NCBI GenBank assembly: GCA_963700635.1
Contig: CAVOYH010000003.1
Coordinates: forward strand, 1,344,001 to 1,408,000
Reading direction: 5' to 3'
Source: an uncultured Bacteroidota bacterium
Lineage (GTDB): Bacteria > Bacteroidota > Ignavibacteria > UBA10030 > UBA6906
Length of the DNA stretch: 64,000 nucleotides
Part shown: piece after piece, positions 22,389 to 54,293 of the stretch
How positions within the stretch are numbered: the first letter of the stretch is position 1
How the letters are laid out: each line of letters begins with the position of its first letter
Notes under the pieces: generated by a model
The model's input: only the letters and a program-made list of their open reading frames with translations
Told to the model about the DNA's origin: nothing
The model's database searches: none
Translations under genes and position numbers: made by a program

Positions 22389-22400
22389 GAGGTGTGAAGA

Positions 22401-28102: not shown

Positions 28103-28148
28103 TCCCTTGGCAAGTCCGGAAGACTGATTCTGAACAAAGGAGTTTCCC

Positions 28149-36447: not shown

Positions 36448-36464
36448 GTTTTTTCATTATCCCC

Positions 36465-36493
36465 TTGACAATTATCTATGAGTCCGTTATATT
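36465..36493 (+). promoter_or_regulatory. Sigma70-type promoter of the nar-act operon
   Basis: TTGACA-N17-TATATT in an AT-rich intergenic region. Confidence 0.75.
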
Positions 36494-36514
36494 CCGACAA
36501 AAGAGTCTGATATA
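36489..36514. promoter_or_regulatory. Palindromic operator copy 1 (overlaps -10/start site)
   Basis: atatTCCGAC-aaaaga-GTCTGAtata. Confidence 0.6.
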
Positions 36515-36582
36515 TAGATCTGAATTTGGACCGGTTTTGTTGAGCCGGGCGGGTGTTTGATACCAGTGTCTTTTAAGTTCCT

Positions 36583-36608
36583 TATTTCAGACTAATCGGT
36601 CTGATTAT
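36583..36608. promoter_or_regulatory. Palindromic operator copy 2 (upstream of narC RBS)
   Basis: tattTCAGAC-taatcg-GTCTGAttat; perfect 6-bp inverted repeat matching copy 1. Confidence 0.6.
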
Positions 36609-36628
36609 CCGTAAAGGAGGCCAGCGCT

Positions 36629-37513
36629 GTGTCTGCCACCACTTTGTTCCCCAGCATCTGCTTAGGGCAGCGTGTTCACCGCCTCGCGTGGATACTTCCG
36701 TCTGCTCTCCTTCTTACCCTTCCGGCGTTCGCCCAGGATCCCGCAGCTGACTTCCGCTCCAACTGTATGAGCTGCCATACCATCGGTGGTGGCCGGCTTA
36801 CAGGACCGGATCTTCAACACGTTACGCAACGTAAGGACCGTGCGTGGTTGACGCAATTCATACAAGATCCTAAATCGAGCATCGATGCCGGCGATCCGTA
36901 CGCCCTTGAGTTGCTCAGGAACTCACGCGGTGTGATCATGCCCGCGTTGCAGGGGATGACAAATGCCCGGGCGGGGGCATTGCTCGATCTGATCGATGCA
37001 GAGTCGATGCTGGCCCGATCCCAGTTTGCCGGCCTGCAGATCAGCGAACGGCCGTTTACTCCGCGGGATGTGGAGCTGGGACGCGGCATCTTCGAGGGCT
37101 CCGTCTCGCTTATCAACGGCGGCCCCTCCTGTATCTCGTGCCATGCCGTGCAGGGATTGGCGCTCTTCGGCGGTGGCACACTCGCCCCCGACCTGACAAC
37201 TGTGCTTGAACGATATCAGGGCCGGAAGATCCTTTCTACATGGCTCTCAGCACCTGCAACACCCACCATGAGTTCGGTCTATAAAACACATCCGCTTCAG
37301 GGTGATGAAGTGCTCGCACTTGTTGCGTATTTCCAGAGTACCCTCGCACGTAATCCCGACGACGTTTCCCCGGCCCGGCTCAACTTCATCCTCATCGGTC
37401 TGGTCGGAACACTTCTTGTCCTGGGTCTTCTGGATATCGTCTGGAGCAAACGCCTTCGTTCCGTGCGCCGCGCCATGGTGAGAGACAAACGATTGGAGGT
37501 TGTCAATGAGTAA
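36629..37513 (+). CDS. narC: Diheme cytochrome c with signal peptide and C-terminal membrane anchor (NarC-like)
   Basis: AAGGAGG + GTG; AFA-Q signal; CMSCH and CISCH, each followed by a distal Met; C-terminal TM helix; overlaps narG start. Confidence 0.85.
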
Positions 37514-40500
37514 CAACGACAAGGTAAGCTGGATCAAAGACGAAGAAGATGTACACCTGCGGAGCTGGGAAGAATTTTATCGCAACCGCTGGCAGCACGA
37601 TAAAGTCGTGAGGAGCACTCACGGTGTGAACTGCACGGGCAGTTGCACCTGGATGATTCATGTCAAGGATGGTATTGTGACATGGGAAATGCAGGGACTT
37701 GATTATCCTTCGCTGGAACACGGTCTGCCCCCGTATGAACCTCGGGGATGTCAGCGCGGAATCTCCTTTTCCTGGTACCTGTACAGTCCGTTGCGCGTGA
37801 AGTACCCGTACATCCGGGGCGCATTGCTCGACCTCTGGCGCAAGGCACGGGCAGAACACGAAGATCCCGTGGAAGCGTGGAAATCGCTCGTCACTGATCC
37901 TGAATCGCGCGGCCGCTGGCAACGCGCACGGGGAAAAGGCGGATTCCGCCGTGCCAGCTGGGAGGAGGCACTGGAGATCACGGCTGCCGCAAACATTCAC
38001 ACCATCAAAACGCACGGCCCGGACCGTATCGCGGGTTTCTCCCCGATTCCCGCGATGTCCATGGTCAGTTACGCGGCGGGCGCCCGTCTGATGCAACTGC
38101 TGGGCGGCATCTCCCTTTCGTTCTATGATTGGTACTGCGACCTTCCCCCGGCATCACCCGAAACGTGGGGAGAGCAGACTGATGTGCAGGAATCGGCCGA
38201 TTGGTATAACGCCAAACTGCTTGCCGTCATGGGGTCCAACCTGAACATGACCCGGACGCCCGACTGCCACTTCGCGGCGGAAGCGCGTCACAACGGCACA
38301 AAAATGTACGTCTTCTCCCCCGATTTCAGCCAGGTTGCAAAATATGCCGACCACTGGGTGTCGGTGAACGCCGGACAGGACGGTGCGTGGTGGATGGCCG
38401 TCAATCATGTACTACTCAAAGAATTCCACCATGACAAGCAGACTCCGTATTTTCTTGACTACACGAAGAAGTTTACCGACGCGCCGTATCTTGTCGAGCT
38501 GACTGACGATGGGGGGGTGTATGAGGCAGGTCAGCTTCTTCGCGCCGGCCGCCTGCAGAAATACGCCGACGCCGAACACGGTGAATGGAAATTCCTCATG
38601 TGGGATGAGACGTCGCAGGCGATGAAGATGCCGATGGGCAGTTCGGGCTTCCGGTGGGGAGCGGAAAAAGGGAAATGGAATCTGCTGCTCCGTGATGGTG
38701 TTGATGGCACCGCCATCGATCCCCAGCTGACTTTTCTGAAAGATTCTGAAACGACGCTCCCGGTCCGTTTTGACAACTTTGCCGATGCCACAAGCCACAC
38801 GCGCCATGTACCGGTGAAATTTGTCACAACGAAAGACGGGAAGAGGGTTGCTGTTGCCACCGTCTATGACATCCTCATGGCTCAGTACGGCGTACCCCGC
38901 GGTTTGCCGGGAGATTACCCCGCCGATTACGATGACAGGGACAAACCCTTCACACCTGCGTGGTCGGAGAAGTACACAGGTATTGACCGGAAGGATCTTC
39001 TGAAGTTTGCGCGGGAATGGGGCAGTACCGCCATGCACACCAACGGCAAGTGCACCATCATCATCGGGGCAGGGATCAACCACTGGTATCACGCCAACCT
39101 GATGTACCGCGCCGGAATCCATGCACTAATGTTCTGCGGATGTATCGGTGTGAACGGCGGTGGCCTCGCGCACTACGTCGGGCAGGAGAAACTTGCACCC
39201 GGAGAACCCTGGGGCGCCATCGCATTTGCCAAGGACTGGTACGGACCGTCCCGCCAGCAAAATGCACCGAGCTGGCACTATGTGCATACAGACCAGTGGC
39301 GGTACGAAAGAGGGTTCACCGATTATCACACGGTGCCGGCGAAACAATCACCCGGTTCGCTCGCCCAGGGTCATACGATGGATGTGCAGGTGAAAGCCGT
39401 CCGCAACGGATGGCTCCCGTTCTATCCGCAGTTTAACCGGAATCCCCTGGATCTCGCGCGTGAAATGGAAGCCGGCGGTCTGACGAAACCGGACGAAATG
39501 GTCAACCAGGTCGTCAACCAGCTTACGAACCGCACACTCAAGTTCGCCGTTGAGGATCCGGATGCATCGGAAAACTGGCCCCGTGTCTGGTACATCTGGC
39601 GCGGCAACGCCCTCATGGCCAGCAGCAAAGGACATGAATACTTCCTTCGCCATTATCTGGGCACCCATGACAATGCTGTCGCCGAAGACATGGCGAAAGA
39701 TTCCGTAAAAGAGGTAACCTGGCACGATAAAGTACCACATGGTAAAATGGATCTTGTGGTGGACCTGAACTTCCGGATGGACACGTCCGCACTGTATTCT
39801 GACATCGTCCTGCCGGCGGCGACCTGGTATGAGAAGGCCGATCTCAACTCGACGGACATGCACAGTTTTATCCATCCACTCTCGGCGGCTGTCCCTCCGT
39901 GCTGGGAGTCGAAAAGCGACTGGGATATCTTCAAAGCAATCGCCAGAAAATTCTCCGAGCTTGCAGCCAATCACTTTCCCCATCCTGTCAGAGATATCGT
40001 CGCCACCCCGCTGGCCCACGATTCTGCCGCGGAGATCGCTCAGCCACAGATCAGGGATTGGATAACGGGTGAGGTGGAAGCGATTCCCGGCAAGAGTATG
40101 CCCAAACTGACGGTCGTGACGCGTGACTACAAGCATGTCTACGACCAGTATATCGCGCTCGGCCCTCTGGTGAAGAAAAACGGGCTGAACGCTCATGGCA
40201 CGGCCTATGCCATCGATGACTTCTACGATCATATGCTCGAGACAGGCCCGACGGTGTCCATCGATGGAACATCCTATCCGTCGTTGCTCAGGGACGTTGA
40301 TGTGTGTGACGCCATCCTGCAGCTTGCCACCGTGACGAACGGCGAGCTTGCATACCGCTCGTACAAGAACATGGAGGAGAAGGTCGGCCTGCCGCTTGCA
40401 CAGCTTGCCGAAAAGAACCGGGGCGTGCGCATCTCCTACCGGGAGCTGCAGGGCCGGCCCATGCGGCTCCTGAACAGTCCGATGTGGTCGGGACTGACGG

Positions 40501-41150
40501 AAAACGGACGGGCCTATTCGCCGTTCACCTACAACAAGGAAGCCCTGGTGCCGTGGCGGACATTAACCGGCCGGCAGCATTTTTATCTCGATCATCCAGG
40601 GTACATTCAATTCGGCGAACATCTTCCCACGTACAAGCCCAAGCCGGCACCCGTGCATTATGCCGACCTCCGCTTCACAAAGGAAGCCGGCGCATCGATG
40701 ATGTTGAACTTCCTGACCCCCCACGGCAAGTGGCATATCCACTCGACCTATGGCGACAATCAGCGTATGACGACTCTCTCGCGCGGGGTGGAACCGTTCT
40801 GGATTAACGACAAAGACGCGGCAGATATCGGTGTGAACGATAATGACTGGGTAGAAGTGTACAATGACCATGGTGTTGTGGTGACCCGCGCCGCGGTCAG
40901 CGCCCGAATCCCCCGCGGCATCTGCATCATCTATCACTCCCCGGAACGAACGTACTCGGTTCCGAAGTCCCCGCTCCGCAACAACCGGCGGGCAGGCGGG
41001 CACAACAGTCTTACCCGTACCCGTCTGAAACCGAACTTGATGGTGGGTGGATACGGACAGTTTACGTTCCACTTCAATTACTGGGGTCCCGTCGGGTGTA
41101 ATCGTGATACGCATGTGCTGGTGCGGAAATGCCCGGAAGTGATCTGGTGA
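37506..41150 (+). CDS. narG: Respiratory nitrate reductase alpha subunit (NarG/NxrA family), cytoplasm-facing
   Basis: [59 protein letters not shown]; no Tat signal. Confidence 0.96.
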
Positions 41151-41177
41151 CCATGCGGTGAACAAGGAGAACTCAGC

Positions 41178-42667
41178 ATGAACGTTCGGTCTCAAATCTC
41201 GATGGTGTTTCATCTCGACAAATGTATCGGGTGCCACACATGCAGCATTGCCTGTAAGAATATCTGGACCGACCGGAAGGGAACGGACTACATGTGGTGG
41301 AACAACGTGGAGACGAAACCCGGCACAGGGTTCCCGACGGCATGGGAGGACCAGCAGAAATACCGGGGTGGGTGGGAGTTGAAGGACGGCAAACTGCAGC
41401 TTCGATCCACGAGCAGGGCCAGGACCATCACCAACATTTTTCACAATCCATCCATGCCGAGTATGGATGAATATTACGAGCCCTGGACTTACACATACGG
41501 CGACCTCTTTAATGCCCCCGAAGGCGCCGACCAGCCCGTCGCACGGCCGATCTCACTGGTTACCGGTGAATACATCAATGTTGAGGCCGGACCGAACTGG
41601 GACGACGACCTCGGTGGTTCTCCCGTGTACGCGGAGAATGATCCCAACCTGAAGAACCTCACGCCGGAACAGCGCGAACAGTTGTTCGCCATTGAGCGCC
41701 TGGTCTTCTTCTACTTTCCCCGCATCTGCAACCACTGCCTGAATCCAAGCTGCGTGGCGTCATGCCCCTCGGGTGCTTTGTACAAGCGCGGGGAGGATGG
41801 TATTGTCCTTATTGACCAGAAACGGTGCCGTGGCTGGAGGGCGTGTGTCGCCGCATGCCCCTACAAAAAGTCGTTCTACAACTGGTCGACCGGCAAGTCC
41901 GAAAAGTGTGTGTTGTGTTATCCCCGGCTTGAAACGGGCCAGGCGCCGGCCTGCTTCCATTCGTGTGTCGGCCGCATCCGTTATCTCGGGGTGTTGCTGT
42001 ATGACGCCGACCGCATTGAAGAAGTGGCGAAGTTTCCAGACGACCAGCTGATCGATGCGCACCGGTCCATGGTTCTCAATCCCCACGATCCCGCCGTGAT
42101 AGAAGGCGCGCGGAAGAGCGGTATTCATGACACGGTCATCGAATCGGCACAGATCTCACCCGTCTATAAATTCGTCAAAGAATGGAAACTTGCCCTTCCG
42201 CCGCATATCGAATTCCGGACTCTCCCGATGCTGTTTTATGTCCCCCCCATGTCTCCGGTTATGGCGCAACGCGGGGACGACACGGTCAGCGGCGTGTCCG
42301 GCGAGTTCTTCCATGATATTGAAGATTCTCGCGTGCCCCTTCAGTTTCTGGCCAATCTCTTCGGCGCGGGCCATCAGGGGAAGGTCCTGTATGCCCTGAA
42401 AAAACAAAAAGCGATCCGGACCTACCGGCGGGCGAAGACGGTCGGGGATATTACCATGGACGTTGCTGAGGCGATGCTCCGTGAAGCCGACTGCACGCCG
42501 CAAGAAGCCGAAGCTGTGTACGCACTGACATCCCTCTGTACGTTTGAGGATCGCTTCGTCATTCCACCCATGCACCGTGAAGAAGCAATTGAATTAATGC
42601 GCGACCCGATGGAGCACAAGGGATCAGTCGGGTTTGGCTTTATGGAGCCCCCCGGAGGGGACTGTGA
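41178..42667 (+). CDS. narH: Nitrate reductase beta subunit (NarH/NxrB); apparent frameshift in the last codons
   Basis: CIGCHTCSIAC, CNHCLNPSCVASC, CRGWRACVAAC, CVLC...CFHSC; adding one C to the C6 run at 42648-42653 gives EPPRRGL-stop at 42667 coupled to narJ (TGATG); the ORF as written runs to 42776. Confidence 0.93.
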
Positions 42668-43225
42668 TGGCGAACCCAGAAGGACATTCTGGATACGCTT
42701 GCCCGTGTTCTCTCCTATCCGGGCGAGGAGTACGGACATCATGTGGCACGGTGTGTGGAGCTCTGCGGTGCGGTGAAGTGGGAAGACCCAGTTGCCGCCC
42801 GGGCGCTCGTGAGCGCCATGAGAAGTTTCTCCGACGCACTCAATGATCTGTCGGACGGAGAACGCGAGGAGCTCTATACCCGGACCTTTGATATCAATCC
42901 GGTCAGCAGTCTGGAAGTTGGCTGGCATTTGTACGGTGAAAGTTATGAACGGGGAGCTTTTCTTGTGCAGATGAGAGATCTCCTGCGGCGGTGTGGCATC
43001 GAGGAATCCAGCGAGCTGCCCGATCATCTTACCCATACCGTGCTTGCCGTCGGAAGGATGGAAGCAGAGGAAGCCGGTAAGTTCGTTTCCGGCCATCTCC
43101 TGAAGGCCATTGACAAAATGCTTGAGGGGTTTGCCGACAAAGGGAATCCCTATGAGCACGTGTTAACATCAACAAAGCTCGTGCTGACCGAGATCCGTAC
43201 GCAGACTGTTCATCAGGAGGTATGA
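42667..43225 (+). CDS. narJ: Nitrate reductase molybdenum cofactor assembly chaperone; frameshift just after the start
   Basis: ELYTRTFD, GESYERG, ELPDHL, NPY; removing one C at ~42676 gives MANQKDILDTLARVLSYP in frame with ORF 42743-43225. Confidence 0.88.
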
Positions 43226-43932
43226 CCATGGTGACCCCGGGGCCGTTTATGTTCGACCAGATTATTTTTGTTGTGTTCCCGTATGTGGCCGTCATCCTGT
43301 TTGTCCTGGTCTCGATCCGTCGATTCAGGACGGAAGCCTACACATTCTCCAGTCTCTCGTCCCAGTTCCTCGAGAATCAGAACCATTTCTGGGGGCTCGT
43401 TCCGTTTCACTTCGGCATTATCACCGTCCTGGCCGGACACCTTATCGCATTCCTGATCCCGCGGGAAATCCTCGCGTGGAACAGCCACCCCGTCCGCCTC
43501 TATATTCTTGAGGGATCAGCCCTGGTTGCATCGCTGCTCACGCTGGTTGGATTGACGTCGATACTCCTGCGCCGGTTCACCGATCCCAGGGTGCGCAAGG
43601 TCACCAGCGGGGCGGATTGGGTTGTGCTCGGGAGTTTTGTGGTGCAGATCCTCAGCGGCCTGTATGTTGCAGTGTTCCATAGCTGGGGCTCCTCCTGGTA
43701 TGCGGCGCTGGCCGCGCCGTATCTCTGGTCGCTCGTTACACTGACTCCCGACATCACCTTCGTCACTGCCATGCCCTGGATGGTTAAAGTACATATTGCC
43801 AGCGCGTGGCTGATGATTGCGTTCGCACCGTTCACACGTCTGGTGCACATCCTTGTCGTTCCGAATCCTTATCTCTGGCGAAAACCGCAGGTGGTGCGAT
43901 GGTACACGAAGTGGTCTCCGCGTCGCAGTTAG
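43222..43932 (+). CDS. narI: Nitrate reductase gamma subunit (diheme cytochrome b)
   Basis: VFPY, SSQFLE, FHFGI...GH, KVH...PFTRLVH: four heme-ligating His; five TM helices. Confidence 0.94.
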   Translation: MTMVTPGPFMFDQIIFVVFPYVAVILFVLVSIRRFRTEAYTFSSLSSQFLENQNHFWGLVPFHFGIITVLAGHLIAFLIPREILAWNSHPVRLYILEGSALVASLLTLVGLTSILLRRFTDPRVRKVTSGADWVVLGSFVVQILSGLYVAVFHSWGSSWYAALAAPYLWSLVTLTPDITFVTAMPWMVKVHIASAWLMIAFAPFTRLVHILVVPNPYLWRKPQVVRWYTKWSPRRS

Positions 43933-43962
43933 CCACACATCCACGATGCCAGGAATTTTTCC

Positions 43963-45534: not shown

Positions 45535-46869
45535 TGACACAGTCCACAACATGGCTCTCCAGATGGGAGCCGGAAAACACCAGGTTCTGGGAGGAGACCG
45601 GGCGCAAAGTCGCATGGCGTACACTTGACGATCACCACCATCTCTCTTGTCCTTTCCTTCTCGACGTGGTTCATGATGAGCGCCATCGTCGTCCGCCTGC
45701 CGCAGGCCGGCTTTACCTTCGATACAATGCAGCTCTTCTGGCTGACGGCGTTGCCGGGGCTTGCCGGAGGGACGCTGCGAGGCGTGCATATGTTCCTCAT
45801 CCCGATTTTCGGTACGCGTGCGGTTATTTCGACGGCCACGTTTTTGAAGTTGATTCCCTGCCTTGGCATCGGTCTTGCCGTGATGAACCCCGCGACCCCG
45901 TTCTGGGTGTTCATGCTGCTCGCGTTTGCGGCCGGTTTCGGAGGTGGTGATTTCTCTTCGCACATGTCGAGCACCAGTGTGTTCTTTCCAAAACGGCTGC
46001 AGGGGACAGCACTTGGCATTCAAGCCGGTGTGGGGAATTTCGGGGTAAGCCTTGCGCAATTTGTGACCCCATGGATCATCGGGATTTCCGGCTACGGGGT
46101 GTCTCAGACGCTCCTGCTGGGTGGGAAAGCCACTCCCGTCTGGCTGCAGAATGCCGCGCTCTGGTATATCCCCCTGCTGCTCCTGATGGGGGCGCTCGCG
46201 TGGAGGTATCTGCGAAGTATCCCCGTGCGTGCCTCGTTCACCGAACAGCTTGACATCTTCAAGAACAAGCACACGTGGTTCTGCACGCTCACCTACGTGA
46301 TGACGTTCGGTTCGTTCGCCGGGTTTTCCGCGGCCTTTCCACTCCTTATCAAGATCCTCTACGGGAAATTCCCGGATGCACCTGACCCACTCGCGTATGC
46401 TTTTCTCGGACCCCTTGTCGGATCCGCTGCGCGTGTTGCGGCGGGACCGCTGGCTGACAGGGTCGGGGGTGCGATTCTGACCCACGTGACCGGTATCGGA
46501 CTGATAGTCTCGGTGGGAATTATGGCAACCACCGGCCTGCTGACACCGGATTCGCCAGATATGTTCCCGTACTTTCTGGCACTGATGCTTATCATCTTCT
46601 TGCTGTCGGGGATCGGGAATGCCTCCACGTTCAGGCAATACCCGATTATTTTCTCGCATTCTCCCCGGCAGGCGGCGGGGGTCATCGGGTGGACGGCCAC
46701 GGTCGCTGCATACGGTCCGTTTGTCTTTGCAACCCTGATTGGTTCGGCCATCACGCACGCCGGATCTCCCGTCCCGTTTTTTGCCGGAGTGGGAGCGTAC
46801 TACGCCATTGCCACGGCTGTCAACTGGTGGTACTACGTGCGAGCGGGATGTGAAACACCACGTTCGTGA
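45534..46869 (+). CDS. narK: NarK-family nitrate/nitrite MFS transporter (NarK2-like); frameshift at ~45625
   Basis: WEPENTRFW...AWRTL in ORF from 45534 continues as TITTISL in ORF 45625-46869; GFGGGDFSS, GTALGI, TFGSFAGF, GNASTFRQ. Confidence 0.9.
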
Positions 46870-46878
46870 GGAATTTGT

Positions 46879-47544
46879 ATGAAATTGCCGGATAACAGAA
46901 TTCTCACCGTCATCCTGGGCGTTGCCGTACTGTTGACGTTTAGTGTGTTCGTGACGTCCTTCACGTTTAATATAAAGTTGCCGGACAACCATCAGGGTTA
47001 TGAACCGGTCCAGCCGATCCAGTATTCGCACAGACTCCACGCCGGAGAACTCGGCATTCCCTGTCTGTTTTGTCACGGTGGCGCGGAGCGGAGCGGCACT
47101 GCGGGGATACCCTCCGCTGGAGTGTGCATGAATTGCCACAAGTATATCTCAGCTCCGTGGGTGCAGGTGAGGGCCGAGGACCAACGTGCCACAAAGGAGA
47201 AGCGTGAACCGCTGCGTCTCGTGTCTCCTGAACTTGAAAAACTCTATAGTGCCATGGGTCTGAATGCTGAAATGAAGAATGACCAGGCGCATACGCCACG
47301 GCCCATCGAATGGGTGAAGGTGCACTCAGTGCCTGCCTTTGTGCGCTTTGATCACAGCATCCATGTGTCTGCCGGAGTGGAATGCCAGACATGCCATGGT
47401 GCGGTGGAAACCATGGAACGTATCCGGCAGGTGTCCGACCTGTCGATGGGGTGGTGTGTGAACTGCCATCGTGATGTCAATCGCCTGGGTCTTAACGGGA
47501 AAACGGTGTATGCTTCGACCGACTGCGTAGTGTGTCACCACTGA
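46879..47544 (+). CDS. actA: Alternative complex III pentaheme cytochrome c subunit
   Basis: N-terminal TM; PVQPIQYSH..HAG; five CxxCH (CLFCH, CMNCH, CQTCH, CVNCH, CVVCH); LSMGWC. Confidence 0.92.
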   Translation: MKLPDNRILTVILGVAVLLTFSVFVTSFTFNIKLPDNHQGYEPVQPIQYSHRLHAGELGIPCLFCHGGAERSGTAGIPSAGVCMNCHKYISAPWVQVRAEDQRATKEKREPLRLVSPELEKLYSAMGLNAEMKNDQAHTPRPIEWVKVHSVPAFVRFDHSIHVSAGVECQTCHGAVETMERIRQVSDLSMGWCVNCHRDVNRLGLNGKTVYASTDCVVCHH

Positions 47545-47585
47545 ACAGAAACGATCACCGTATTGCTGATGAACGACAGGTGCCA

Positions 47586-50561
47586 ATGAGTCACGACCAT
47601 CAACGACCGGAAGGCCCGGTGCCGTTCGATATAGACCGGCGCTCATTTCTCAAAGTTGCCGGGTTCTCGTTCGCAGGAGTTATGATCGCCGGATGCCAGA
47701 AGGGGGGCGTGGAAAAGGCAATTCCACTTCTGGTCCAACCGGAAGACTCCACGCCGGGCATTGCCTCCTGGTATCCCACCACATGCGCCGGGTGTTCTGC
47801 AGGATGTGGTGTGCTGGCGAAAGAGAGGGAAGGACGGCCCATCAAGCTTGAGGGGAATCCGGAGCATCCACTTTCGCGCGGCGGACTGTGCGCGGTGGGT
47901 CAGGCCTCACTGCTGGGACTGTACGATTCCCGGCGACTGCATACGTCCCTCATTCAAGGAAAGCCCTCTACCTGGAGTCAGATCGATGAGGAAGTGGGGG
48001 CGGAACTCAGACGGATCAAGAGCACGGGAGGTGCCGTGTGCTTCCTGACCGGGACCATCGACAGTCCGACGACGCGGGCCATGATCAATAAGTTCCTGGC
48101 CGGCTTCGCCCGTGCACGACATATCGAGTATGACTCGATGTCCTGCTCGGCCATTCTTGATGCGCATAATATCACGCATGGCAAACGGGTGCTGCCGCGC
48201 TATCGATTTGATAGAGCGGAAGTCATCGTCAGTGTTGATGCGGATTTTCTTGGCAATTGGATTTCGCCGGTTGAATTTACGAAGGGATATCGTTCTGGCC
48301 GGACACTCGGAGGCGATCCTGCTCGCTTTTCATTTCATGCCCAGATCGAGTCGCGTGTCTCACTCACCGGCAGCAATGCAGACGAACGAATCTGTGTTTC
48401 TCCGGATGAAATGCGCGGGAGTCTGGAGAAACTGGCAGAGCTGATTGCGTACAGATCAGGAAAGCAGCCCATTGTTCAGACCACTCTCTCCCCGGAGCTG
48501 GACCAAACGATCGGACGCCTTGCCGACCGGCTCTGGTCCGCTCGCGGCAGAGGGCTCGTACTCTGCGGGGTGAACACTCTCCGGTGTCAGTTGCTCGTGA
48601 ATGTCATCAATGACATGCTGGGGAATTACGGCCAGACCGTTGATCTCACCTTCCCCTCGTACCAGTATGGCGGCGATGATGCCGGGCTGGGAGAACTGTT
48701 GAAGGAAATCTTCTCCGGCGATATCGCCGCCCTGTTTATCGCAGGCGTGAACCCTGTCTATGAACTTCCGGACGGGCCGGCCCTCGGCGAGGCATTGAAG
48801 AAGATTCCGCTGGTGGTAAGTTTTGCGGAACGGGTTGACGAAACTGCCGCCTGTTCCCGGTACGTCTGCCCGCAGCCTCACGCGCTCGAATCGTGGACCG
48901 ATCGCGAACCGGTCGCCGGAATTGTTGCGGTGGCGCAGCCCGCCGTACAACCTCTGATGGACACACGGCATCTCCTTGAGAGCCTCGGTGTTTGGAGCGG
49001 TGAAAAAGAACCTGCGCTCAGTCTGATCCAGCGCGAGTGGAAACGGTCTGTGTTCACGCGACAATCGGGGGAAGTTTCCTTTCCACGATTCTGGGATCGA
49101 ACCCTGGCTTCAGGGTACGCCGAGGTTACCTCCAGGCCGGGTGTTTCACGGTCGTGCGACTACGCGGCACTCCGGGGTACACTGGCACCTGTTGTTCCTC
49201 CCGGTTCAGATACCGATGGGCACACGCTTCTCCTGTATCCTTCATTGACCATGCTGGATGGACGGCACGCGCACAATCCCTGGCTGCACGAACTCCCCGA
49301 TCCCGTCACAAAAGTGGTCTGGGACAACGTCGTATCGGTCTCGCGGAAGACCGCAGAAGCACTTGGTGTGCATGATGGGGATGTGCTCCGCCTTGAGGCG
49401 GATGACCGCTCGGTGGAGTTGCCCGTCCATATCCAACCCGGTCAGCACGATACGGTAGTGGTTGTTGCGCTCGGGTACGGAAGGGAGGGCACGGACCGGT
49501 TTGCGGATATTGGTCCGCATTGGCTTCAGTCACAGCCCACGGTGTCAGCGGGTGAACGTATCGGCAAGAATGCCGCGGTGTTTCTCCGGATGGCCGAGGG
49601 GTGTCTTTCCTCCTCTGGAGGCAGGGTTACGCTCGTTGCCACCGGGCGCAAGCAAACACTTGCCATGACCCAGGAGTACAACTCGCTTCACGAGCCCGAG
49701 CTTCTCGGCGGATCAACTGGTCCACGCCGGCCGATAGTTCAGGAAACCACGCTCGCGTCCTTTATCAAGGACCCATCGGCGGGGAGCTTCCACAAGGAAC
49801 AGCTCGACTCCATGTGGCCGGAGGATCACACCTACACAGGACATCGTTGGGGAATGGCGATTGATCTGACTGCCTGTACAGGCTGCTCCGCGTGTGTGCT
49901 CGGCTGCCAGGTAGAAAACAACATTCCGGTGGTCGGCAAAGATGAGGTCCATCGTAACAGGGAATTGGCGTGGATACGGATTGACCGTTATTACGACGAA
50001 TCCGGAGGCGGGTTCTCTGTTGCCCATCAGCCAATGATGTGTCAGCACTGCGGCAACGCTCCATGCGAGACCGTCTGTCCCGTTCTGGCCACGGTGCACA
50101 GTGAAGAGGGACTAAATCAGCAAATCTACAACCGCTGTGTCGGAACACGGTACTGTGCCAATAACTGTCCGTATAAGATGAGGCGATTCAACTGGTTTCA
50201 ATACCGGCACGGTGATGAAATGCATAAAATGGTACTCAACCCTGATGTTACCGTGCGTGATCGGGGTGTTATGGAAAAATGTTCGTTCTGCATTCAGCGC
50301 ATCCAGGGGGCGAAGATCGAGGCAAAACGAAACGGCAGGGTGGTGCGGGATGGGGATGTGCAGCCCGCATGTGCGCAATCATGTCCGGCGCAGGCTATCG
50401 TCTTTGGGGATACGAATGATCCGGAAAGTGACATATCGAAGCGATTGTCCGATCCCCGCGCGTACCGGGTGCTGGAAGAACTTGGCGTCCGTCCGTCGAT
50501 CGGCTACCTGACGCTGGTGCGAAATCGGGAAGCACAACGCACGGAGACGCATCATGGCTAA
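47586..50561 (+). CDS. actB: Alternative complex III subunit B (molybdopterin-oxidoreductase-like domain + Fe-S domain), Tat-exported
   Basis: DRRSFLK Tat motif; GRPIKLEGNP; NPWLHELPDPVTK..WDN; CTGCSAC..C, CQHC..PCETVCP, CVGTRYCANNCP, CSFC...CAQSCP. Confidence 0.93.
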   Translation: MSHDHQRPEGPVPFDIDRRSFLKVAGFSFAGVMIAGCQKGGVEKAIPLLVQPEDSTPGIASWYPTTCAGCSAGCGVLAKEREGRPIKLEGNPEHPLSRGGLCAVGQASLLGLYDSRRLHTSLIQGKPSTWSQIDEEVGAELRRIKSTGGAVCFLTGTIDSPTTRAMINKFLAGFARARHIEYDSMSCSAILDAHNITHGKRVLPRYRFDRAEVIVSVDADFLGNWISPVEFTKGYRSGRTLGGDPARFSFHAQIESRVSLTGSNADERICVSPDEMRGSLEKLAELIAYRSGKQPIVQTTLSPELDQTIGRLADRLWSARGRGLVLCGVNTLRCQLLVNVINDMLGNYGQTVDLTFPSYQYGGDDAGLGELLKEIFSGDIAALFIAGVNPVYELPDGPALGEALKKIPLVVSFAERVDETAACSRYVCPQPHALESWTDREPVAGIVAVAQPAVQPLMDTRHLLESLGVWSGEKEPALSLIQREWKRSVFTRQSGEVSFPRFWDRTLASGYAEVTSRPGVSRSCDYAALRGTLAPVVPPGSDTDGHTLLLYPSLTMLDGRHAHNPWLHELPDPVTKVVWDNVVSVSRKTAEALGVHDGDVLRLEADDRSVELPVHIQPGQHDTVVVVALGYGREGTDRFADIGPHWLQSQPTVSAGERIGKNAAVFLRMAEGCLSSSGGRVTLVATGRKQTLAMTQEYNSLHEPELLGGSTGPRRPIVQETTLASFIKDPSAGSFHKEQLDSMWPEDHTYTGHRWGMAIDLTACTGCSACVLGCQVENNIPVVGKDEVHRNRELAWIRIDRYYDESGGGFSVAHQPMMCQHCGNAPCETVCPVLATVHSEEGLNQQIYNRCVGTRYCANNCPYKMRRFNWFQYRHGDEMHKMVLNPDVTVRDRGVMEKCSFCIQRIQGAKIEAKRNGRVVRDGDVQPACAQSCPAQAIVFGDTNDPESDISKRLSDPRAYRVLEELGVRPSIGYLTLVRNREAQRTETHHG

Positions 50562-51978
50562 GACCCCCGTGGCTGCCCGCACGTTCCCCGCCGCACACGA
50601 GGAAAAGTCCTCTGGCTGGTCTGTGTTGAGAGAGCCACTCATTCTCGGGCACAAGACGTATGGTGATGTCACGGAAGATGTGTGCTCGCCTCTGGACCAG
50701 AAGGCATCCACGGCCTGGTGGGCGGCGTTTGTGATTTCTCTCTGCGTCTTGCTGCTGGGGGTGGTCTCTGTTGCCTATCAAATCGCAACCGGCGTCGGTG
50801 CGTGGGGATTGAACAACACCGTTGGCTGGGCGTTTGATATCACCAACTTTGTGTTCTGGATTGGTATCGGCCACGCAGGGACGCTGATCTCAGCCATCCT
50901 GTTTCTTTTCCGCCAGAAGTGGAGAACCGGGGTTAACCGTTCGGCGGAAGCGATGACGATATTTGCGGTGATTTGCGCGGGCATTTTTCCCATCATCCAC
51001 ACGGGGCGTCCCTGGCTGGCGTACTGGCTGGTTCCGTATCCGAATTTCCGCGGACCGCTCTGGGTGAACTTCCGGTCTCCGCTGGTGTGGGATATGTTTG
51101 CGATCAGCTGTTATTTCACGATTTCTGCGGTGTTCTGGTTTGTGGGGCTCATTCCTGACTTTGCCACGCTCCGCGACCGGTCAACGTCCGGTCTGAAAAA
51201 ACGGCTCTACAGCTTCCTCAGTTTCGGATGGGATGGATCCAATCGCACCTGGCACCGATACGAAAAGGTATATCTGCTGCTCGCGGGATTGGCGACACCG
51301 TTGGTGGTGTCGGTACACACGATTGTGAGCTGGGACTTTGCAACCTCGGTCATCCCCGGGTGGCACACGACCATCCTCCCTCCCTATTTTGTGGCAGGCG
51401 CGGTGTTCTCCGGTTTTGCCATGGTGCTCACCCTGATGCTAATCGTGCGCACGGTGATGCGAATGGAAGCCTACATTACCCTCCATCATGTTGAACAGAT
51501 GTGCAAGATCATTCTCACCACGGGAGGCATGGTGGCGCTGGCCTATGCCACCGAGATCTTTGTGGCATATTATTCCGGGAACGAATACGAACGATTCGCT
51601 TTTATCAACAGGGCCCTCGGACCGTACGCCTGGGCGTACTGGACGATGGTCTCGTGTAATGTTCTGGTACCTCAGTTCCTGTGGTTTAAGAAGATCAGAA
51701 GGAGCATCGTTGCCGTTTTTATTCTTTCCATTTTCATCAATATCGGCATGTGGTTTGAGCGGTACGTGATCATCATGACGTCCCTGACCAGGGATTATCT
51801 CCCGGCAGGGTGGTCCGGCTTTACACCCACTCTTATTGACCTCGGCACGCTGATCGGAAGCTTCGGGTTGTTTTTTACTCTCTTCCTGCTCTTTGCCCGG
51901 TTTCTCCCGATGATTGCCATCGGTGAAGTGAAGGGGGTTCTCCGGTACGGCCGTACACCGAAAGGGGATTCAGCATGA
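50554..51978 (+). CDS. actC: Alternative complex III subunit C (NrfD/PsrC-type quinol-binding membrane subunit)
   Basis: WAFDITNFVFWIGIGHAGTLISAI, NRSAEAMT, HTGRPW, SPLVWD, PLVVSVHT, PPYFVAGA, GMWFER. Confidence 0.95.
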   Translation: MAKTPVAARTFPAAHEEKSSGWSVLREPLILGHKTYGDVTEDVCSPLDQKASTAWWAAFVISLCVLLLGVVSVAYQIATGVGAWGLNNTVGWAFDITNFVFWIGIGHAGTLISAILFLFRQKWRTGVNRSAEAMTIFAVICAGIFPIIHTGRPWLAYWLVPYPNFRGPLWVNFRSPLVWDMFAISCYFTISAVFWFVGLIPDFATLRDRSTSGLKKRLYSFLSFGWDGSNRTWHRYEKVYLLLAGLATPLVVSVHTIVSWDFATSVIPGWHTTILPPYFVAGAVFSGFAMVLTLMLIVRTVMRMEAYITLHHVEQMCKIILTTGGMVALAYATEIFVAYYSGNEYERFAFINRALGPYAWAYWTMVSCNVLVPQFLWFKKIRRSIVAVFILSIFINIGMWFERYVIIMTSLTRDYLPAGWSGFTPTLIDLGTLIGSFGLFFTLFLLFARFLPMIAIGEVKGVLRYGRTPKGDSA

Positions 51979-52499
51979 GCCGCCGCGTATTGGTAAGTGT
52001 GTTCGGGAGTGAGGAGGATATCCTCGGCGCCACAACGCAGGCACGAGAGCGCGGTTATGACATCATTGATACCTATACGCCGTATGCGGTGCACGGACTC
52101 GATGCGGCCATGGGAATCACCCCCACACGTCTTGCGTACGTGTGTTTTGCGCTGGGCCTGACCGGCGCAGTAGCCAAACTGGGTTTCCAGATCTGGACGT
52201 CGGCATGGGATTGGCCCGTGAATGTGGGAGGCAAGCCTCTCGTGTCAATCCCTGCGTTTGTCCCGGTGACCTTTGAAGTCATGGTATTGTTTGCCGGCGT
52301 CGGAACCGTTCTGGCCTTCTTTCTGGTGAGCCGGCTCTTTCCGGGAAAAAAACCGAAGGTGGTGTTTCCACGGGTGACCGACGATCATTTTGTTCTTGTG
52401 CTTGACGAGAAGGATGCTTCGTTTGACGTCAGGAAAGTGGAACTCATGTTCAAACCGTATGCCCCGCTCCACATGGAGGAGCGGGTGCTGCAGGAGTAG
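51975..52499 (+). CDS. actD: Alternative complex III subunit D (DUF3341)
   Basis: YTPYAVHGLD.AMG, DWPVNVGGKP, PAFVPVTFE, RVTDDHF. Confidence 0.92.
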   Translation: MSRRVLVSVFGSEEDILGATTQARERGYDIIDTYTPYAVHGLDAAMGITPTRLAYVCFALGLTGAVAKLGFQIWTSAWDWPVNVGGKPLVSIPAFVPVTFEVMVLFAGVGTVLAFFLVSRLFPGKKPKVVFPRVTDDHFVLVLDEKDASFDVRKVELMFKPYAPLHMEERVLQE

Positions 52500-52502
52500 C
52501 GC

Positions 52503-53099
52503 ATGTCGAGCAAGGCCCTGAACCGTGTTCTGTTCGTCATTCTCGTATTCATGGTGGGTACGGTCTTTCTTGTTCGCCGGGATTACACCACGAAAAACGT
52601 GGAATTCCTGCCGGGGATGGTTTCCGGTGTTGCGTACGGACCACAATCCGCCAACCCGATTTTTCAGGATCGAAAGACCCTTCAGATGCCGGTGAAAGGA
52701 ACGGTGGCGCGGGGGTTTGAACCGCTGCTGTACACCCCGGATCCGGAAGGCGCGCTTCGGGCCGGGCTGGAGTTAGGCAGTTCGCTGGATCCGAAAGACA
52801 GCACCGGGGATCTTGCCCGCGGGGCGTTTGTCTTTAACACATTCTGTACACCCTGCCATGGATCAGGCGGAGCGGGCGATGGCCTGATTCCCCAGCGCGG
52901 ATTTCCGCCCCCGCCCTCGCTCCTTGCAGAGCATGCCGTCACCATGAAGGACGGGCAGATCTTCCATATCATCACCTATGGTCAGCGCACTATGCCTGCC
53001 CTTGCCGGGCAAGTGGTGCGCGACGATCGGTGGCGTGTGGTGAACTTTATCCGGACGCTGCAGAAACATTCAAAACCGACTCCCCTCGCCGCACAATGA
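52503..53099 (+). CDS. actE: Alternative complex III monoheme cytochrome c subunit
   Basis: PVKGTVARG, CTPCH, DGQIFHIITYG..TMP, DRWRVVNFIRTLQ. Confidence 0.9.
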   Translation: MSSKALNRVLFVILVFMVGTVFLVRRDYTTKNVEFLPGMVSGVAYGPQSANPIFQDRKTLQMPVKGTVARGFEPLLYTPDPEGALRAGLELGSSLDPKDSTGDLARGAFVFNTFCTPCHGSGGAGDGLIPQRGFPPPPSLLAEHAVTMKDGQIFHIITYGQRTMPALAGQVVRDDRWRVVNFIRTLQKHSKPTPLAAQ

Positions 53100-54283
53100 A
53101 ACCCGAACCCCACATCCCGCATACCACGTTCCGAATGTCGGAACGGCTCCGGAAGACCCTTCTCGGCGTCACCCTTGCCGGATTGTCCATCGCGGCGCTT
53201 GGCGTCATTGTATCACCCGAACGTACGTGGCCCAATATTCTCCTGGCCAATTATTATCTGATGAGTCTCGGACTGGCGGGCGTGTTCTTTGTCGCGCTGC
53301 AGTATGTGTCCAATGCGGGCTGGCCGACGGCATTCCGGCGTGTGCCCGAAGCGATGATAACAACCATCCCGGTCTCCGGACTGGTGATGCTCGTTATCCT
53401 GTTCGGCATTCCCGCGCTCTACGAATGGAGCCACGTGTCGGCCGTGGAGCAGAGCAGGGTGCTGCAGGCAAAAGCAGGGTGGCTGAATATCCCCTTCTTT
53501 GCCGTCCGCACCGTTCTCTATCTGACGGTATGGGTTGTCCTTGCCTCCGCCATCGTCCGTTTGTCCCGAAAACAGGATCTGGATGGCGGGGTGGTGCACA
53601 CGCTCAGGAACAGAAAATTCTCGGCGGCATTTATCGTTGTCTTTGCTTTGACATTCACGCTTGCCAGCATGGACTGGATCATGTCGCTGGAACCCCACTG
53701 GTTCAGCACCATCTTCGGCGTGTACAATTTCAGCGGTCTGTTTCTGAACGGTCTTGCGACGATCACGTTGAGTGTCATTCTCCTGCGCCGGTGGGGGTTT
53801 CTGGCGGGGGTTGTCAGCGATGCGCATCTGCATGATCTCGGCAAACTTCTCTTTGCTTTCAGTACCTTCTGGATGTACATCTGGTTCAGCCAGTACATCC
53901 TCATATGGTATGCGAACATCCCCGAAGAAGTGCGGTACTACACCACGCGTTCACAGGGAGGGTGGCTGGTATTGACGATCGTGAATGTGGTTTTCAACTG
54001 GTTGATACCGTTTCTCATCCTGCTCCCCGCCTGGACGAAGAAAAACGAAGCGGTTCTGTTTCGCGTCTGCATCATTCTCATGATCGGTCACTGGATTGAT
54101 TTGTTCTGGATGATTCTTCCTCCCTTTATGAAAGGGAATCCCACGTTGTTCTTCTGGGAAATCGGTCCCATAGCTGCTGCAATCGGTGGATTCTTCCTGT
54201 TGACATTCAGGACTTTGGCCAGGCACAAACTCGTCCCGGCGAAGGACCCGTACCTCGCTGAAAGTATCACACGAGACCATTAA
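53096..54283 (+). CDS. actF: Alternative complex III subunit F (membrane)
   Basis: [57 protein letters not shown]. Confidence 0.93.
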
Positions 54284-54293
54284 GGGAGGTGGC

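Follow-up and report, generated by a model that had tools for sequence, protein, structure and literature searches.

Among described systems, the narCGHJIK(T) operon of Thermus thermophilus is like the locus reported here in that a gene for a C-terminally anchored dihaem cytochrome c lies directly 5' of narG, and in its order narC-G-H-J-I-narK. Thermus NarCGHI is a heterotetramer. The available portion of PMC7694296 has NarC binding NarI, which bears out the statement in the sequence-only reading, an earlier note made from the letters of this DNA, that Thermus NarC is a fourth Nar subunit. The same text proposes NarC as an outlet by which electrons leave Nar for Nir and Nor. The Thermus nitrate respiration conjugative element and the present module are alike as transferable cassettes with their own electron-transfer module. 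However, Thermus nar is paired with an NADH dehydrogenase cluster, called Nrc in PMC7694296 and comprising genes for a ferredoxin, an SDH-type FeS protein and an NAD(P)/FAD oxidoreductase, and has no alternative complex III (ACIII) beside it.

Oxidase-linked ACIII, as in Rhodothermus marinus (ACIII-caa3), Flavobacterium johnsoniae (ACIII-aa3 supercomplex) and Ignavibacterium album, has the same six subunits, order and cofactor motifs as the copy reported here, which instead sits after nar rather than before SCO1-COX genes and falls in a separate clade. An ActD-ActE fusion is described for I. album, with actABC-DE-F next to caa3 (PMC3362086, available portion); the oxidase-linked copy of our genome shares this fusion, whereas ActD and ActE are two distinct proteins in its nar-linked copy. 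Thermogutta terrifontis likewise has complex III genes beside a membrane nitrate reductase, and its authors suggest that complex III participates in nitrate respiration, but there the complex is bc1, NarC was not found and NarG is assigned to a deep Nar-DMSO lineage (PMC5673643).

The nar-adjacent six-gene block is itself in print for 13 Planctomycetota MAGs as a "novel NrfD-containing complex" (Suarez et al. 2023, PMC10732223), which is the same block; in the available portion of that paper it is not recognized as ACIII. OFTM MAGs, which we take to be from that study, are among our nar-linked loci (L007, L046, L057, L060, and L072). Beyond that paper, the block is here identified as ACIII, extended to further phyla, and set apart as a distinct ACIII clade. 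The earlier statement that no characterized Nar-ACIII example was known stands, with adjacency alone printed in the available portion of PMC10732223.

Layout of the nar-act locus

The window, that is, the whole 64,000-nt stretch of DNA analysed, from an uncultured Bacteroidota bacterium, contains 13 co-directional genes at 36629-54283 on the + strand, in the order narC-narG-H-J-I-narK1-narK2-actA-B-C-D-E-F. These genes and their places had been proposed from the sequence alone, and profile and structure-chain matches confirmed the identities.

The first gene, narC (36629..37513), encodes a membrane-anchored periplasmic dihaem cytochrome c of 294 aa with a signal peptide, CxxCH motifs at 46 and 168, and a C-terminal TM helix; both motifs, together with Met104 and Met214, are invariant across 21 sequences. 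On pTTJL1801 of T. thermophilus JL-18, narG is immediately preceded by a cytochrome c gene whose product shares 29% identity with the window NarC across 246 aa (E 2e-17), along with the two motifs and the anchor. NarG (37500..41150, 1216 aa; TIGR01580 1507 bits, cut-off 1084) is the nitrate reductase alpha subunit, with an H-x3-C-x3-C cluster motif near its N-terminus and no twin-arginine signal found. It is followed by the iron-sulfur beta subunit NarH (41178..42776, 532 aa; TIGR01660 643 bits, cut-off 524) and the assembly chaperone NarJ (42743..43225, 160 aa), which passes Pfam only (PF02613 33 bits, cut-off 22; TIGR00684 cut-off 59, missed at 30.8 bits). NarI (43222..43932, 236 aa; PF02665 197 bits) is a dihaem b membrane subunit of the TIGR01351 type (TIGR00351 118 bits, cut-off 106). 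Two NarK-family MFS transporters come next. NarK1 (43963..45534, 523 aa) matches MFS_1 and scores 188 bits against TIGR00886, below cut-off; NarK2 (45534..46869; TIGR00886 264 bits) reads for 414 aa from TTG 45625. The conserved NarK2 N-terminus, in frame in relatives, is here encoded by 31 codons from ATG 45534 that overlap the narK1 stop and sit in a different frame, so narK2 is frameshifted near 45625 in the assembly.

The act genes begin with actA (46879..47544), for a pentahaem cytochrome c of 221 aa that has a TM helix at its N-terminus; each of its five CxxCH motifs is conserved without exception across 44 sequences. ActB (47532..50561, 1009 aa) fuses a MopB-like part to a 4Fe-4S part and carries an RR motif (6F0K_B, E 2e-185; 6BTM_B, E 3e-181), and ActC (50554..51978, 474 aa) is the NrfD-like quinol-site membrane subunit (6BTM_C, E 4e-197; 6F0K_C, E 1e-185). 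ActD (51975..52499, 174 aa) matches PF11821 at 176 bits, and ActE (52503..53099, 198 aa) is a monohaem cytochrome c whose one CxxCH (C115/C118/H119) is invariant in 39 sequences. ActF (53030..54283), a second NrfD-like membrane subunit, matched no Pfam family but did match 6F0K_F (E 4e-77) and 6BTM_F (E 9e-56); its probable start is ATG 53096, giving 395 aa. Chains of solved ACIII (6F0K/6BTM) were thus matched by ActB, ActC, and ActF, with most E values at 1e-77 to 1e-197.

Overlaps join narC/narG (14 nt), narH/narJ (34 nt, longest ORF taken), narJ/narI (4 nt), actA/actB (13 nt), actB/actC (8 nt), actC/actD (4 nt), and actE/actF (4 nt, given the ATG 53096 start), and gaps separate narG from narH (27 nt), narI from narK1 (30 nt), narK2 from actA (9 nt), and actD from actE (3 nt). 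The 9-bp figure for narK2-actA agrees with the earlier one, as does an upper limit of about 41 bp on the gaps, except at narK1-narK2, where the distance from TTG 45625 of the frameshifted narK2 is 90 nt.

A sigma-70-like promoter match, TTGACA-17-TATATT, lies at 36465..36493 (+), 136 nt upstream of narC. With 11/12 positions matched, it was the best of 11 hits in a pattern scan of 36000-55000, but the hit total did not exceed that of shuffles (9.3 +/- 3.0), so the single consensus promoter claimed earlier is kept as a pattern match only. As to internal terminators, 24 terminator-like sites were counted (18.3 +/- 4.6 in shuffles), all of them weak. Downstream, a gene for a 690-aa BNR/Sortilin-like secreted beta-propeller (54294..56366, +) begins 10 nt past actF with its own GGAGG in front, so the transcription unit may extend to 56366 rather than end at actF. 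This gene is outside the conserved module; no counterpart 3' of actF was found in relatives, nor was any other gene conserved there. As the sequence-only reading had stated, no oxidase genes were found 3' of actF in the window.

Conservation, phylogeny, and the second complex III

The nar-act linkage is conserved. Of 79 loci nearest to the window ActB, 66 were testable, and 61 of these were nar-linked in the same order, in Bacteroidota/Ignavibacteria, Planctomycetota, Acidobacteriota, Hydrogenedentota, and Myxococcota. NarC was present at all 12 loci whose flank reaches far enough, and in some loci (L152, L154, L043, L057, L078, and L097) the act genes lie between narI and narK. The narK2-actA joint recurs in the 61 independently assembled loci, which in practice excludes a misassembly at about 46870, the artefact named earlier as its possible source. 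Among 121 sampled Planctomycetota genomes, narG was found in 15, and 13 of these also encode ActD on that strand, 8-12 kb further downstream (12/14 without the hand-picked centre genome). Within the window's own phylum (301 genomes), narG was found in 20, comprising 8 ACIII-linked, 9 unlinked, and 3 cut by contig ends; the linked set includes the window's genome, giving 8/17 decidable cases, or 7/16 without it. Nar genes were absent beside the nar-type-clade ACIII at L063, L068, L073, and L083, and narG was found in none of the five genomes of these loci and L006, whose completeness is not known. The arrangement and its recurrence suggest that narCGHJI-narK1K2-actABCDEF is one operon, presumably co-transcribed, found across several bacterial phyla.

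The phylogeny called for earlier separated the two kinds of ACIII. A FastTree phylogeny of 125 ActC rows placed all 65 nar-linked rows inside one 78-row clade with zero oxidase-linked rows, and an IQ-TREE phylogeny of 81 rows set all 36 that are oxidase-linked apart from the others by a branch with SH-aLRT 91. Judged by ActC, the nar-linked ACIII is a distinct clade, apart from all oxidase-linked ACIII. In the NarG tree, linked Bacteroidota NarG grouped with linked Planctomycetota and Acidobacteriota NarG, apart from unlinked NarG of the same phylum; Thermus NarG, in contrast, grouped with the unlinked sequences, outside the ACIII-linked clade.

The sequence-only reading had asked whether the genome holds another ACIII, and a second cluster was found beside a caa3 oxidase, in the order actA-B-C-DE-F followed by cyt c, SCO1, COX1, COX3, and COX2. 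The two copies are 35-40% identical in ActB and 58% in ActC. Across 35 of 40 module-bearing genomes, at least two ActD copies were counted in 14 and one in 20; 16 of 20 second copies fetched were followed by SCO1-COX2-COX1-COX3. A cytochrome b gene occurred in 38/40 module-bearing genomes, and in at least 10 single-ActD Planctomycetota genomes no more than about 12 kb separated it from an A-type COX1; haem-copper oxidases occurred in 40/40. The nar-linked ACIII is not the housekeeping complex III; the oxidase has a separate one.

Proposed electron path to nitrate and rival explanations

Our best reading, held at about even confidence, is that one operon encodes a cytoplasm-facing NarC-type nitrate reductase and a dedicated ACIII that would feed Nar via NarC. 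Nitrate and nitrite would be exchanged over the membrane by the NarK proteins, and menaquinol would be oxidized by ACIII at ActC on the periplasmic side. Electrons would then travel via the iron-sulfur clusters of ActB to ActA and ActE, whose haems are periplasmic, reach the haem pair of membrane-anchored NarC, and cross the membrane through the two NarI b haems to NarH and NarG, where nitrate would be reduced. Such a path would keep the ordinary redox-loop charge separation of Nar and add any protons that ACIII translocates, so the yield per electron would rise. It is the most economical of the three sub-options offered earlier for a dedicated Nar-ACIII module, a core idea supported by the conserved linkage, the separate clade, and the second, oxidase-linked ACIII.

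There are counterpoints. NarC is not specific to the ACIII linkage: all 19 further nar operons retrieved from the phylum sample had a NarC-like gene, including the 9 without ACIII. The outward flow proposed for Thermus NarC also points against this path, as do the five genomes with nar-type-clade ACIII in which narG was not found. NarI may also still oxidize quinol directly, in which case ACIII is not required: its four haem-ligand His align with those of Escherichia coli NarI, and the position of the quinol-site Lys86 of that protein is Arg in the window NarI and in 62/62 ACIII-linked NarI, as well as in 7/12 unlinked NarI. If NarC is of high potential, moving electrons from it into NarI against the membrane potential would be only marginally feasible.

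The retained NarI ligands and basic residue fit a possible, though rather unlikely, alternative, in which Nar is fed by menaquinol via NarI and ACIII is co-induced as a general anoxic complex III that reduces the periplasmic cytochrome c pool, with the linkage reflecting shared regulation and joint horizontal transfer rather than electron transfer between the two. The pool would serve whichever c-dependent enzymes the host carries, among them NosZ, cNOR-like haem-copper enzymes, peroxidases, and octahaem nitrite reductases. NarC-type Nar is known without ACIII in the phylum sample and in Thermus, nar-type-clade ACIII occurs in the five genomes where narG was not found, and an ACIII of Caldithrix is proposed as donor to periplasmic multihaem reductases (PMC5317091, available portion). 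Candidate acceptors also lie near some modules: NosZ at about 5-7 kb in G065 and G033, nrfHA 3' of the module in G305, and a divergent haem-copper enzyme 9 kb downstream of the module in the window.

Counts over the 40 module-bearing genomes, of known completeness in just 5, weaken both this alternative and the earlier sub-option that ACIII supplies periplasmic denitrification enzymes. A NirK-like protein was found in 1/40 (completeness not known for 35), NirS in 0/40 by a search without a positive control that scored, and NosZ in 5/40, and in the NosZ carriers G033, G145, and G316 nosZ has a cytochrome b gene a few kb away at most. NrfA was found in 19/40, but nrfA adjoins its own nrfH in both genomes checked (the window's and G305). 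Many haem-copper matches were open frames of about 740-820 aa, which we take to be the size of quinol-dependent NOR. Moreover, the nar-act joint is conserved while nothing 3' of actF is, and the hosts already have another complex III.

Distinctly less probable is that NarC serves as an exit, as proposed for Thermus, with NarI oxidizing menaquinol, some electrons leaving through NarC to periplasmic acceptors, and ACIII working alongside as another quinol oxidase within one respirasome, with the haems of NarC and ActE as a node that both use. The available portion of PMC7694296 reports Thermus genetics in which NarC is needed for growth on nitrite/NO when complex III is repressed, and the constant presence of NarC in the phylum sample agrees with such a role, but the acceptors were mostly not found in module-bearing genomes, and the strict nar linkage of a second quinol oxidase would be left unexplained.

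Very improbable is cytoplasmic nitrite oxidation, with electrons leaving via NarI and NarC and ACIII reversed to reduce quinone. The Nitrobacter-type nitrite oxidoreductase is of the NarG lineage and comes with a NarC-like cytochrome c (PMC7694296 and PMC10732223, available portions), a periplasmic protein with which the cytoplasm-facing enzyme exchanges electrons (PMC7694296). Its reaction runs opposite to the proposed cytochrome c-to-nitrate path. We know of no ACIII linkage for that enzyme. The carrier lineages are described as organoheterotrophic and are presumably menaquinone users. The haem-copper oxidases found in every module-bearing genome are compatible with nitrite oxidation, but menaquinone reduction by nitrite is very uphill, and NrfA in the carriers fits nitrate ammonification; reverse flow, the third earlier sub-option, is unlikely on this energetic reasoning. 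The hypothesis in the available portion of PMC10732223 that the six genes form a novel NrfD-containing complex, based on their location behind nar and on the presence of the pentahaem ActA and NrfD-like subunits, is scarcely credible, since a non-ACIII complex is contradicted by the matches of ActB, ActC, and ActF to solved ACIII, by PF11821 in ActD, and by the ACIII subunit order, and the block has no gene for a catalytic haem protein of the NrfA type.

Read as a nitrate reductase with its own dedicated ACIII, the Nar-ACIII block suggests a so far unstudied electron route to nitrate that may also be more energy-efficient.

The module in the window

Thirteen co-oriented genes, narC-narG-H-J-I-narK1-narK2-actA-B-C-D-E-F, had been read from the sequence alone on the + strand (window 36629-54283), and these were confirmed from the ORF list and from Pfam, NCBIfam, and solved-structure searches. 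The claimed spacing was borne out as well, down to the gap of 9 nt that separates narK2 from actA, with two corrections: a frameshift in narK2 and a BNR gene 3' of actF. The first gene, narC, starts at 36629 (+) and encodes a cytochrome c of 294 aa. The narG, narH, and narI products all exceed their NCBIfam equivalog cut-offs (TIGR01580, 1507 bits against 1084; TIGR01660, 643 against 524; TIGR00351, 118 against 106), which identifies them as NarGHI. The narJ product scored above threshold in Pfam only, and two genes encode NarK-family MFS transporters. NarG has an H-x3-C-x3-C cluster motif at its N-terminus and no Tat signal; together with the transporters of the operon and the four His haem ligands kept in NarI, these are the features of a cytoplasm-facing enzyme, and by homology NarGHI, with its transporters and chaperone, faces the cytoplasm.

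All six core subunits of alternative complex III (ACIII) are present, in the order actA-B-C-D-E-F. ActB, ActC, and ActF match solved subunits from Rhodothermus, Flavobacterium, Roseiflexus, and Chloroflexus (E 1e-77 to 1e-197), with best E values against 6F0K/6BTM chains of 2e-185, 4e-197, and 4e-77, respectively, and ActD scores 176 bits against PF11821. In ActB, which also carries an RR motif, a MopB-like domain is fused to a 4Fe-4S domain, while ActC and ActF are NrfD-like. ActA combines a membrane helix with five CxxCH motifs (pentahaem), invariant in 44 aligned sequences, and the single CxxCH of ActE (monohaem) is invariant in 39. By homology, this ACIII would be expected to oxidise menaquinol and to pass the electrons to c haems in the periplasm. 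Oxidase genes had been claimed to be absent after actF, and indeed no COX gene lies 3' of actF in the window or in any mapped nar-linked locus. The usual, though non-defining, neighbor of ACIII, a haem-copper oxygen reductase, is thus missing at the module and present at the other ACIII of the genome.

The conserved N-terminal 31 codons of narK2 run from ATG 45534, overlapping the narK1 stop, and the remainder lies in another frame that reopens at TTG 45625; in relatives, both parts share one frame. The break (window 45534-45660) is either an assembly indel or a true lesion in one of the two transporters. As a second gene, for a cytochrome b, is also split in this six-contig assembly, assembly indels are a likely cause, with a genuine frameshift possible. 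That cytochrome b belongs to a cluster with a Rieske protein and a multihaem cytochrome c (contig C3 of the genome, ~1099700-1102000; L104:3677-6024, -) and is divided over two overlapping frames of 136 and 115 aa, the second apparent frameshift in the assembly. Beginning 10 nt past actF, with its own GGAGG, a gene for a 690-aa BNR/Sortilin-Vps10-like secreted beta-propeller (54294-56366, +; F510_1955-like, below cut-off) may be part of the module transcript; no counterpart was seen 3' of actF in the relatives mapped. A weaker BNR-like match lies 5' of an oxidase-linked ACIII in locus L119.

A consensus promoter had been proposed for the operon; what stands is a single strong match at 36465-36493 (+), predicted by pattern and agreeing at 11 of 12 positions. 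No internal terminator had been seen in the sequence; terminator-like matches are weak and no commoner than in shuffles. Upstream, a B12-binding radical SAM protein with DUF4070 (34966-36447, +) ends 181 nt 5' of narC, and positions 31513-33414 encode a PAS histidine kinase. The window showed no regulator of the Crp/Fnr type. The stretch 15671-31433 (+) holds two RND efflux systems (OEP, HlyD-type adaptor, AcrB-type pump) and, between them, an AraC-family regulator and a heavy-metal P-type ATPase of 596 aa that looks truncated past the hydrolase domain.

Conservation and phylogeny of the nar-act linkage

To define conservation, we took the best 79 loci among at least 590 relatives of the window ActB in one-genome-per-species contigs and mapped all window proteins onto them by tblastn; 66 had enough upstream sequence to test. 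The linkage is conserved, with nar genes directly upstream and on the same strand in 61 of these 66 loci. The five without are L006, L063, L068, L073, and L083. Of these, L006 (part of JBBIRR010000002.1) lacks ActA and ActC, retains only part of ActD, and joins a NarC fragment directly to ActB; we took it for a module copy that had collapsed or been rearranged and scored it as unlinked. Immediately 5' of actA stands narK2 in 46 loci, with narK1 there in 12 and narI in 3, and NarC precedes narG in all 12 loci with a long enough flank. The act genes are found between narI and narK in L152, L154, L043, L057, L078, and L097, an insertion that is hard to reconcile with mere neighborhood. Clustering of 156 ORFs 3' of actF revealed no conserved partner gene there, no family occurring in more than four loci; MoaA was one of the small families. 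The record titles name Bacteroidota, Ignavibacteriota, "Chlorobi", Candidatus Zhuqueibacter, Planctomycetota, Acidobacteriota, Hydrogenedentota, and Myxococcota/"Deltaproteobacteria".

Since this set was picked by likeness to the query, samples chosen from the narG side were added. Within the window's own phylum (301 genomes), ActD was found in 216 and NarG in 20, and the 19 nar loci besides the window's were all fetched for scoring. Eight of the 20 are linked to ACIII (the window's included), nine are unlinked, and three are cut by contig ends (G293, G081, and G241). A Planctomycetota sample of 121 genomes, centered on a genome chosen for carrying the module (G303), had ActD in 59 and NarG in 15. 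Thirteen of these 15 have ActD on the contig and strand of narG, 8-12 kb further downstream (12 of 14 leaving out G303); the exceptions are one genome split over contigs (G358) and one unlinked (G344). The module is accessory, because a genome of the same genus as the window's (G053) has no narG and a single ActD.

The expectation of a second, oxidase-linked ACIII in the genome proved correct: on contig C4 (~818900-832900; L003, L004), a second ActD lies within actA-B-C-DE(fused)-F, followed by cytochrome c, SCO1, COX1, COX3, and COX2. Past COX2 are another cytochrome c and a UbiA-family gene (PF01040), and bshC is upstream. The excerpted account of Ignavibacterium album (PMC3362086) gives the same ACIII-oxidase arrangement. 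For comparison, we assembled 20 second copies from module-bearing genomes and 26 ACIII loci from the two phylum samples. Among the second copies, SCO1-COX2-COX1-COX3 come next in 16, three are cut by contig ends, and one (L106) has no oxidase within the stretch fetched. COX genes lie 3' of actF in all 26 other loci, which were picked, not at random, from listed and mostly high-scoring ActD matches.

The nar-linked copies also form their own clade, as anticipated. In a FastTree phylogeny of 125 ActC sequences, all 65 nar-linked ones fall in one 78-member clade (support 93) that otherwise holds 13 sequences of undetermined linkage and none that is oxidase-linked. In an IQ-TREE quick search (LG+G4) of 81 hand-chosen sequences (41 nar-linked, 36 oxidase-linked, and 4 standalone), all 36 oxidase-linked ActC are set apart by a branch of SH-aLRT 91. 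The nar-linked ActB and ActC of the window share about 38% and 58% identity with the genome's own oxidase-linked copy, against 61-69% and 74-84% with nar-linked copies of related lineages.

The NarG tree unites 36 linked NarG and the truncated G293 locus in one clade (support 100), and linked Bacteroidota NarG are nearer to linked Planctomycetota and Acidobacteriota NarG than to unlinked NarG of their own phylum. Thermus NarG sits with five unlinked sequences (support 99). Five linked lineages branch deeply and one unlinked clade, of seven, is nested, so that the label changes three times; on this unrooted tree, the simplest history would be one origin of the linkage and at least one loss.

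Complex III and electron acceptors in carrier genomes

We surveyed 40 module-bearing genomes, with completeness known for the five from the phylum sample only. A haem-copper oxidase is present in all 40 and cytochrome b in 38. ActD copies were counted in a set of 40 genomes, 35 of them module-bearing: a single copy occurs in 20 of the 35 and two or three copies in 14, and the one remaining genome, G331, whose locus breaks off inside actC, yielded none. The single-ActD carriers are mainly Planctomycetota, and at least 10 have cytochrome b within ~12 kb of an A-type COX1. Throughout, then, the oxidase is provided with a complex III of its own. A housekeeping role for the module ACIII as sole complex III was rejected on the second, oxidase-linked ACIII of this genome and on the oxidase, cytochrome b, and ActD counts of the carriers surveyed.

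Other acceptors for an ACIII are scarce. A NirK-like gene is found in 1 of the 40 module-bearing genomes, NirS in none (in a search whose positive control gave no signal), and NosZ in five, with a cytochrome b gene beside nosZ in three carriers. As these acceptors were mostly not found in the 40 carriers, we rejected ACIII as donor to NirS, NirK, or NosZ. In two genomes of the taxonomic order to which the window belongs, a Sec-type nosZ lies within ~5-7 kb of the module (G065:C9:16665-18467 and G033:C35:252250-253971). NrfA occurs in 19 of the 40, but its own nrfH precedes nrfA both in the window's genome and in an Ignavibacteriales MAG (G305) where nrfA follows the module, and ACIII as NrfA donor is rejected as a general explanation. 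Downstream of the module and co-oriented with it, that MAG (L158; G305:C90:47000-58700) carries moaA and genes for an Rrf2-family regulator and a YwiC-like protein, then nrfH, nrfA, and a hemerythrin gene, which makes a nitrate-to-ammonium gene string.

In the window's genome, NirK and Sec-type NosZ were not found, and the only NirS-family match was weak. What the genome does show is one nrfHA pair, the caa3 oxidase, and, at the end of the window, a single haem-copper subunit I of 540 aa that is very divergent (window 63030-64000, -, continuing to L103:3030-4652; COX1, 182 bits). The best solved relative of this subunit is cbb3 CcoN, at just 29 bits, and the protein may represent either an unusual oxidase or a NOR; a 188-aa gene without known family lies upstream of it.

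Proposed electron flow through NarC

The narC gene immediately precedes narG, and its product is a periplasmic dihaem cytochrome c that combines a signal peptide and two CxxCH motifs with a membrane anchor helix at the C-terminus. NarC shares 29% identity over 246 aa (pairwise E 2e-17) with the cytochrome c whose gene sits just ahead of narG on Thermus megaplasmids; by tblastn, 13 Thermus plasmid records matched at E 2e-9 to 7e-10, and 14 came within the limit of E 1e-3. Both haem motifs and the membrane anchor are common to the two proteins, and on sequence comparison the kinship holds but is distant. More than 2000 NarC homologues were found, and the best 120 are labeled only "cytochrome c" or "mono/diheme cytochrome c", none being named NarC. 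The 19 further nar operons found in the phylum sample all contain a NarC-like gene, showing that NarC is not specific to ACIII linkage. Identity to the window NarC is 60-69% in most linked operons and 36% in one, against ~27-32% in unlinked operons. Among candidate partners for the periplasmic haems of the nar-linked ACIII, NarC alone is conserved.

In the textbook scheme, NarGHI takes electrons directly from quinol and conserves energy by its redox loop only, and ACIII is usually regarded as a component of aerobic or phototrophic chains. We put at about even the chance that the module ACIII feeds Nar through NarC: ACIII would oxidise menaquinol and reduce NarC, and NarC would pass the electrons to the periplasm-side haem of NarI, and so to NarH/NarG. 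This path is suggested by the conserved linkage, the dedicated clade, the oxidase's separate complex III, and the scarcity of other c-type acceptors. Reasoning from standard potentials, menaquinol at about -75 mV and nitrate at +420 mV leave room beyond the 2 H+/2e- of the Nar loop. A proton-translocating ACIII in the route would exploit this spare potential, given moderate-potential NarC haems; if these were of high potential, electron entry into NarI would be only marginally feasible against the membrane potential.

Against ACIII feeding Nar, NarC-type Nar also occurs without ACIII, and NarI looks intact. The residue aligned to E. coli Lys86 is Arg in 62 of 62 linked and 7 of 12 unlinked NarI, and so does not tell the two groups apart; with the haem ligands intact and Arg at this position, NarI may still oxidise quinol directly. 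Moreover, no narG was found in five genomes that have an ACIII of the nar-type clade. It is possible, though doubtful, that the module encodes a general anoxic complex III; these five genomes have to be set beside the conserved nar linkage and the few acceptors detected in the carriers. Thermus NarC is needed for Nar maturation and binds NarI in two-hybrid assays, roles established for Thermus only, and it has been proposed to send electrons out to Nir and Nor under complex III repression (excerpts of PMC7694296). A NarC-exit or shared-node model has this proposal in its favor and the rarity of Nir genes in the carriers against it, and we consider it unlikely. The NarC-to-NarI step proposed for the module is the reverse of the Nitrobacter NXR reaction; nitrite oxidation by the module itself seems very improbable. 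The published idea of a "novel nitrite reductase" is hardly credible beside the six ACIII subunits.

Returning to ACIII as the donor to Nar, we tentatively propose a "nitrate respirasome" of Nar and ACIII, a fuller version that may be correct but that we hold with less confidence. Menaquinol would be oxidised by ACIII alone, with entry via NarC and not the NarI quinol site, making the NarG-type enzyme effectively a cytochrome c:nitrate oxidoreductase. There would be a second coupling site, with a higher H+/e- than the Nar redox loop, and the cassette would have spread between phyla. If true, this would be the physiological reverse of Nitrobacter NXR.

Our literature search, which covered sources other than subscription ACIII reviews (e.g., by Refojo and colleagues), found the adjacency only in PMC10732223. 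Excerpts of that paper report it in 13 Planctomycetota MAGs, state that the six genes fit no known complex, and suggest a nitrite reductase or respiratory role for them. The ACIII identification corrects this view of the genes as an unknown complex or nitrite reductase. Only oxidase-linked ACIII is described in the excerpted Ignavibacterium, Melioribacter, and Lacipirellula genome papers, and in Thermogutta bc1 genes adjoin a different Nar (PMC5673643). New here are the division of NarC-type nar operons into those with and without ACIII, the retention in each host of another complex III to serve its oxidase, the virtual absence of NirS, NirK, and NosZ from carriers (40 genomes), and the near-universal linkage among Nar operons of the Planctomycetota sample.

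The module is real, widespread, and uncharacterised, a distinct ACIII clade being joined to nar operons in Bacteroidota/Ignavibacteria, Planctomycetota, Acidobacteriota, Hydrogenedentota, and Myxococcota. If ACIII feeds Nar, the function of NarC would be explained, and ACIII would gain a second physiological partner, testable by genetics and cryo-EM. The assumed energy yield of nitrate reduction would then be wrong for many abundant uncultured groups of soils, sediments, groundwater, and low-oxygen waters.
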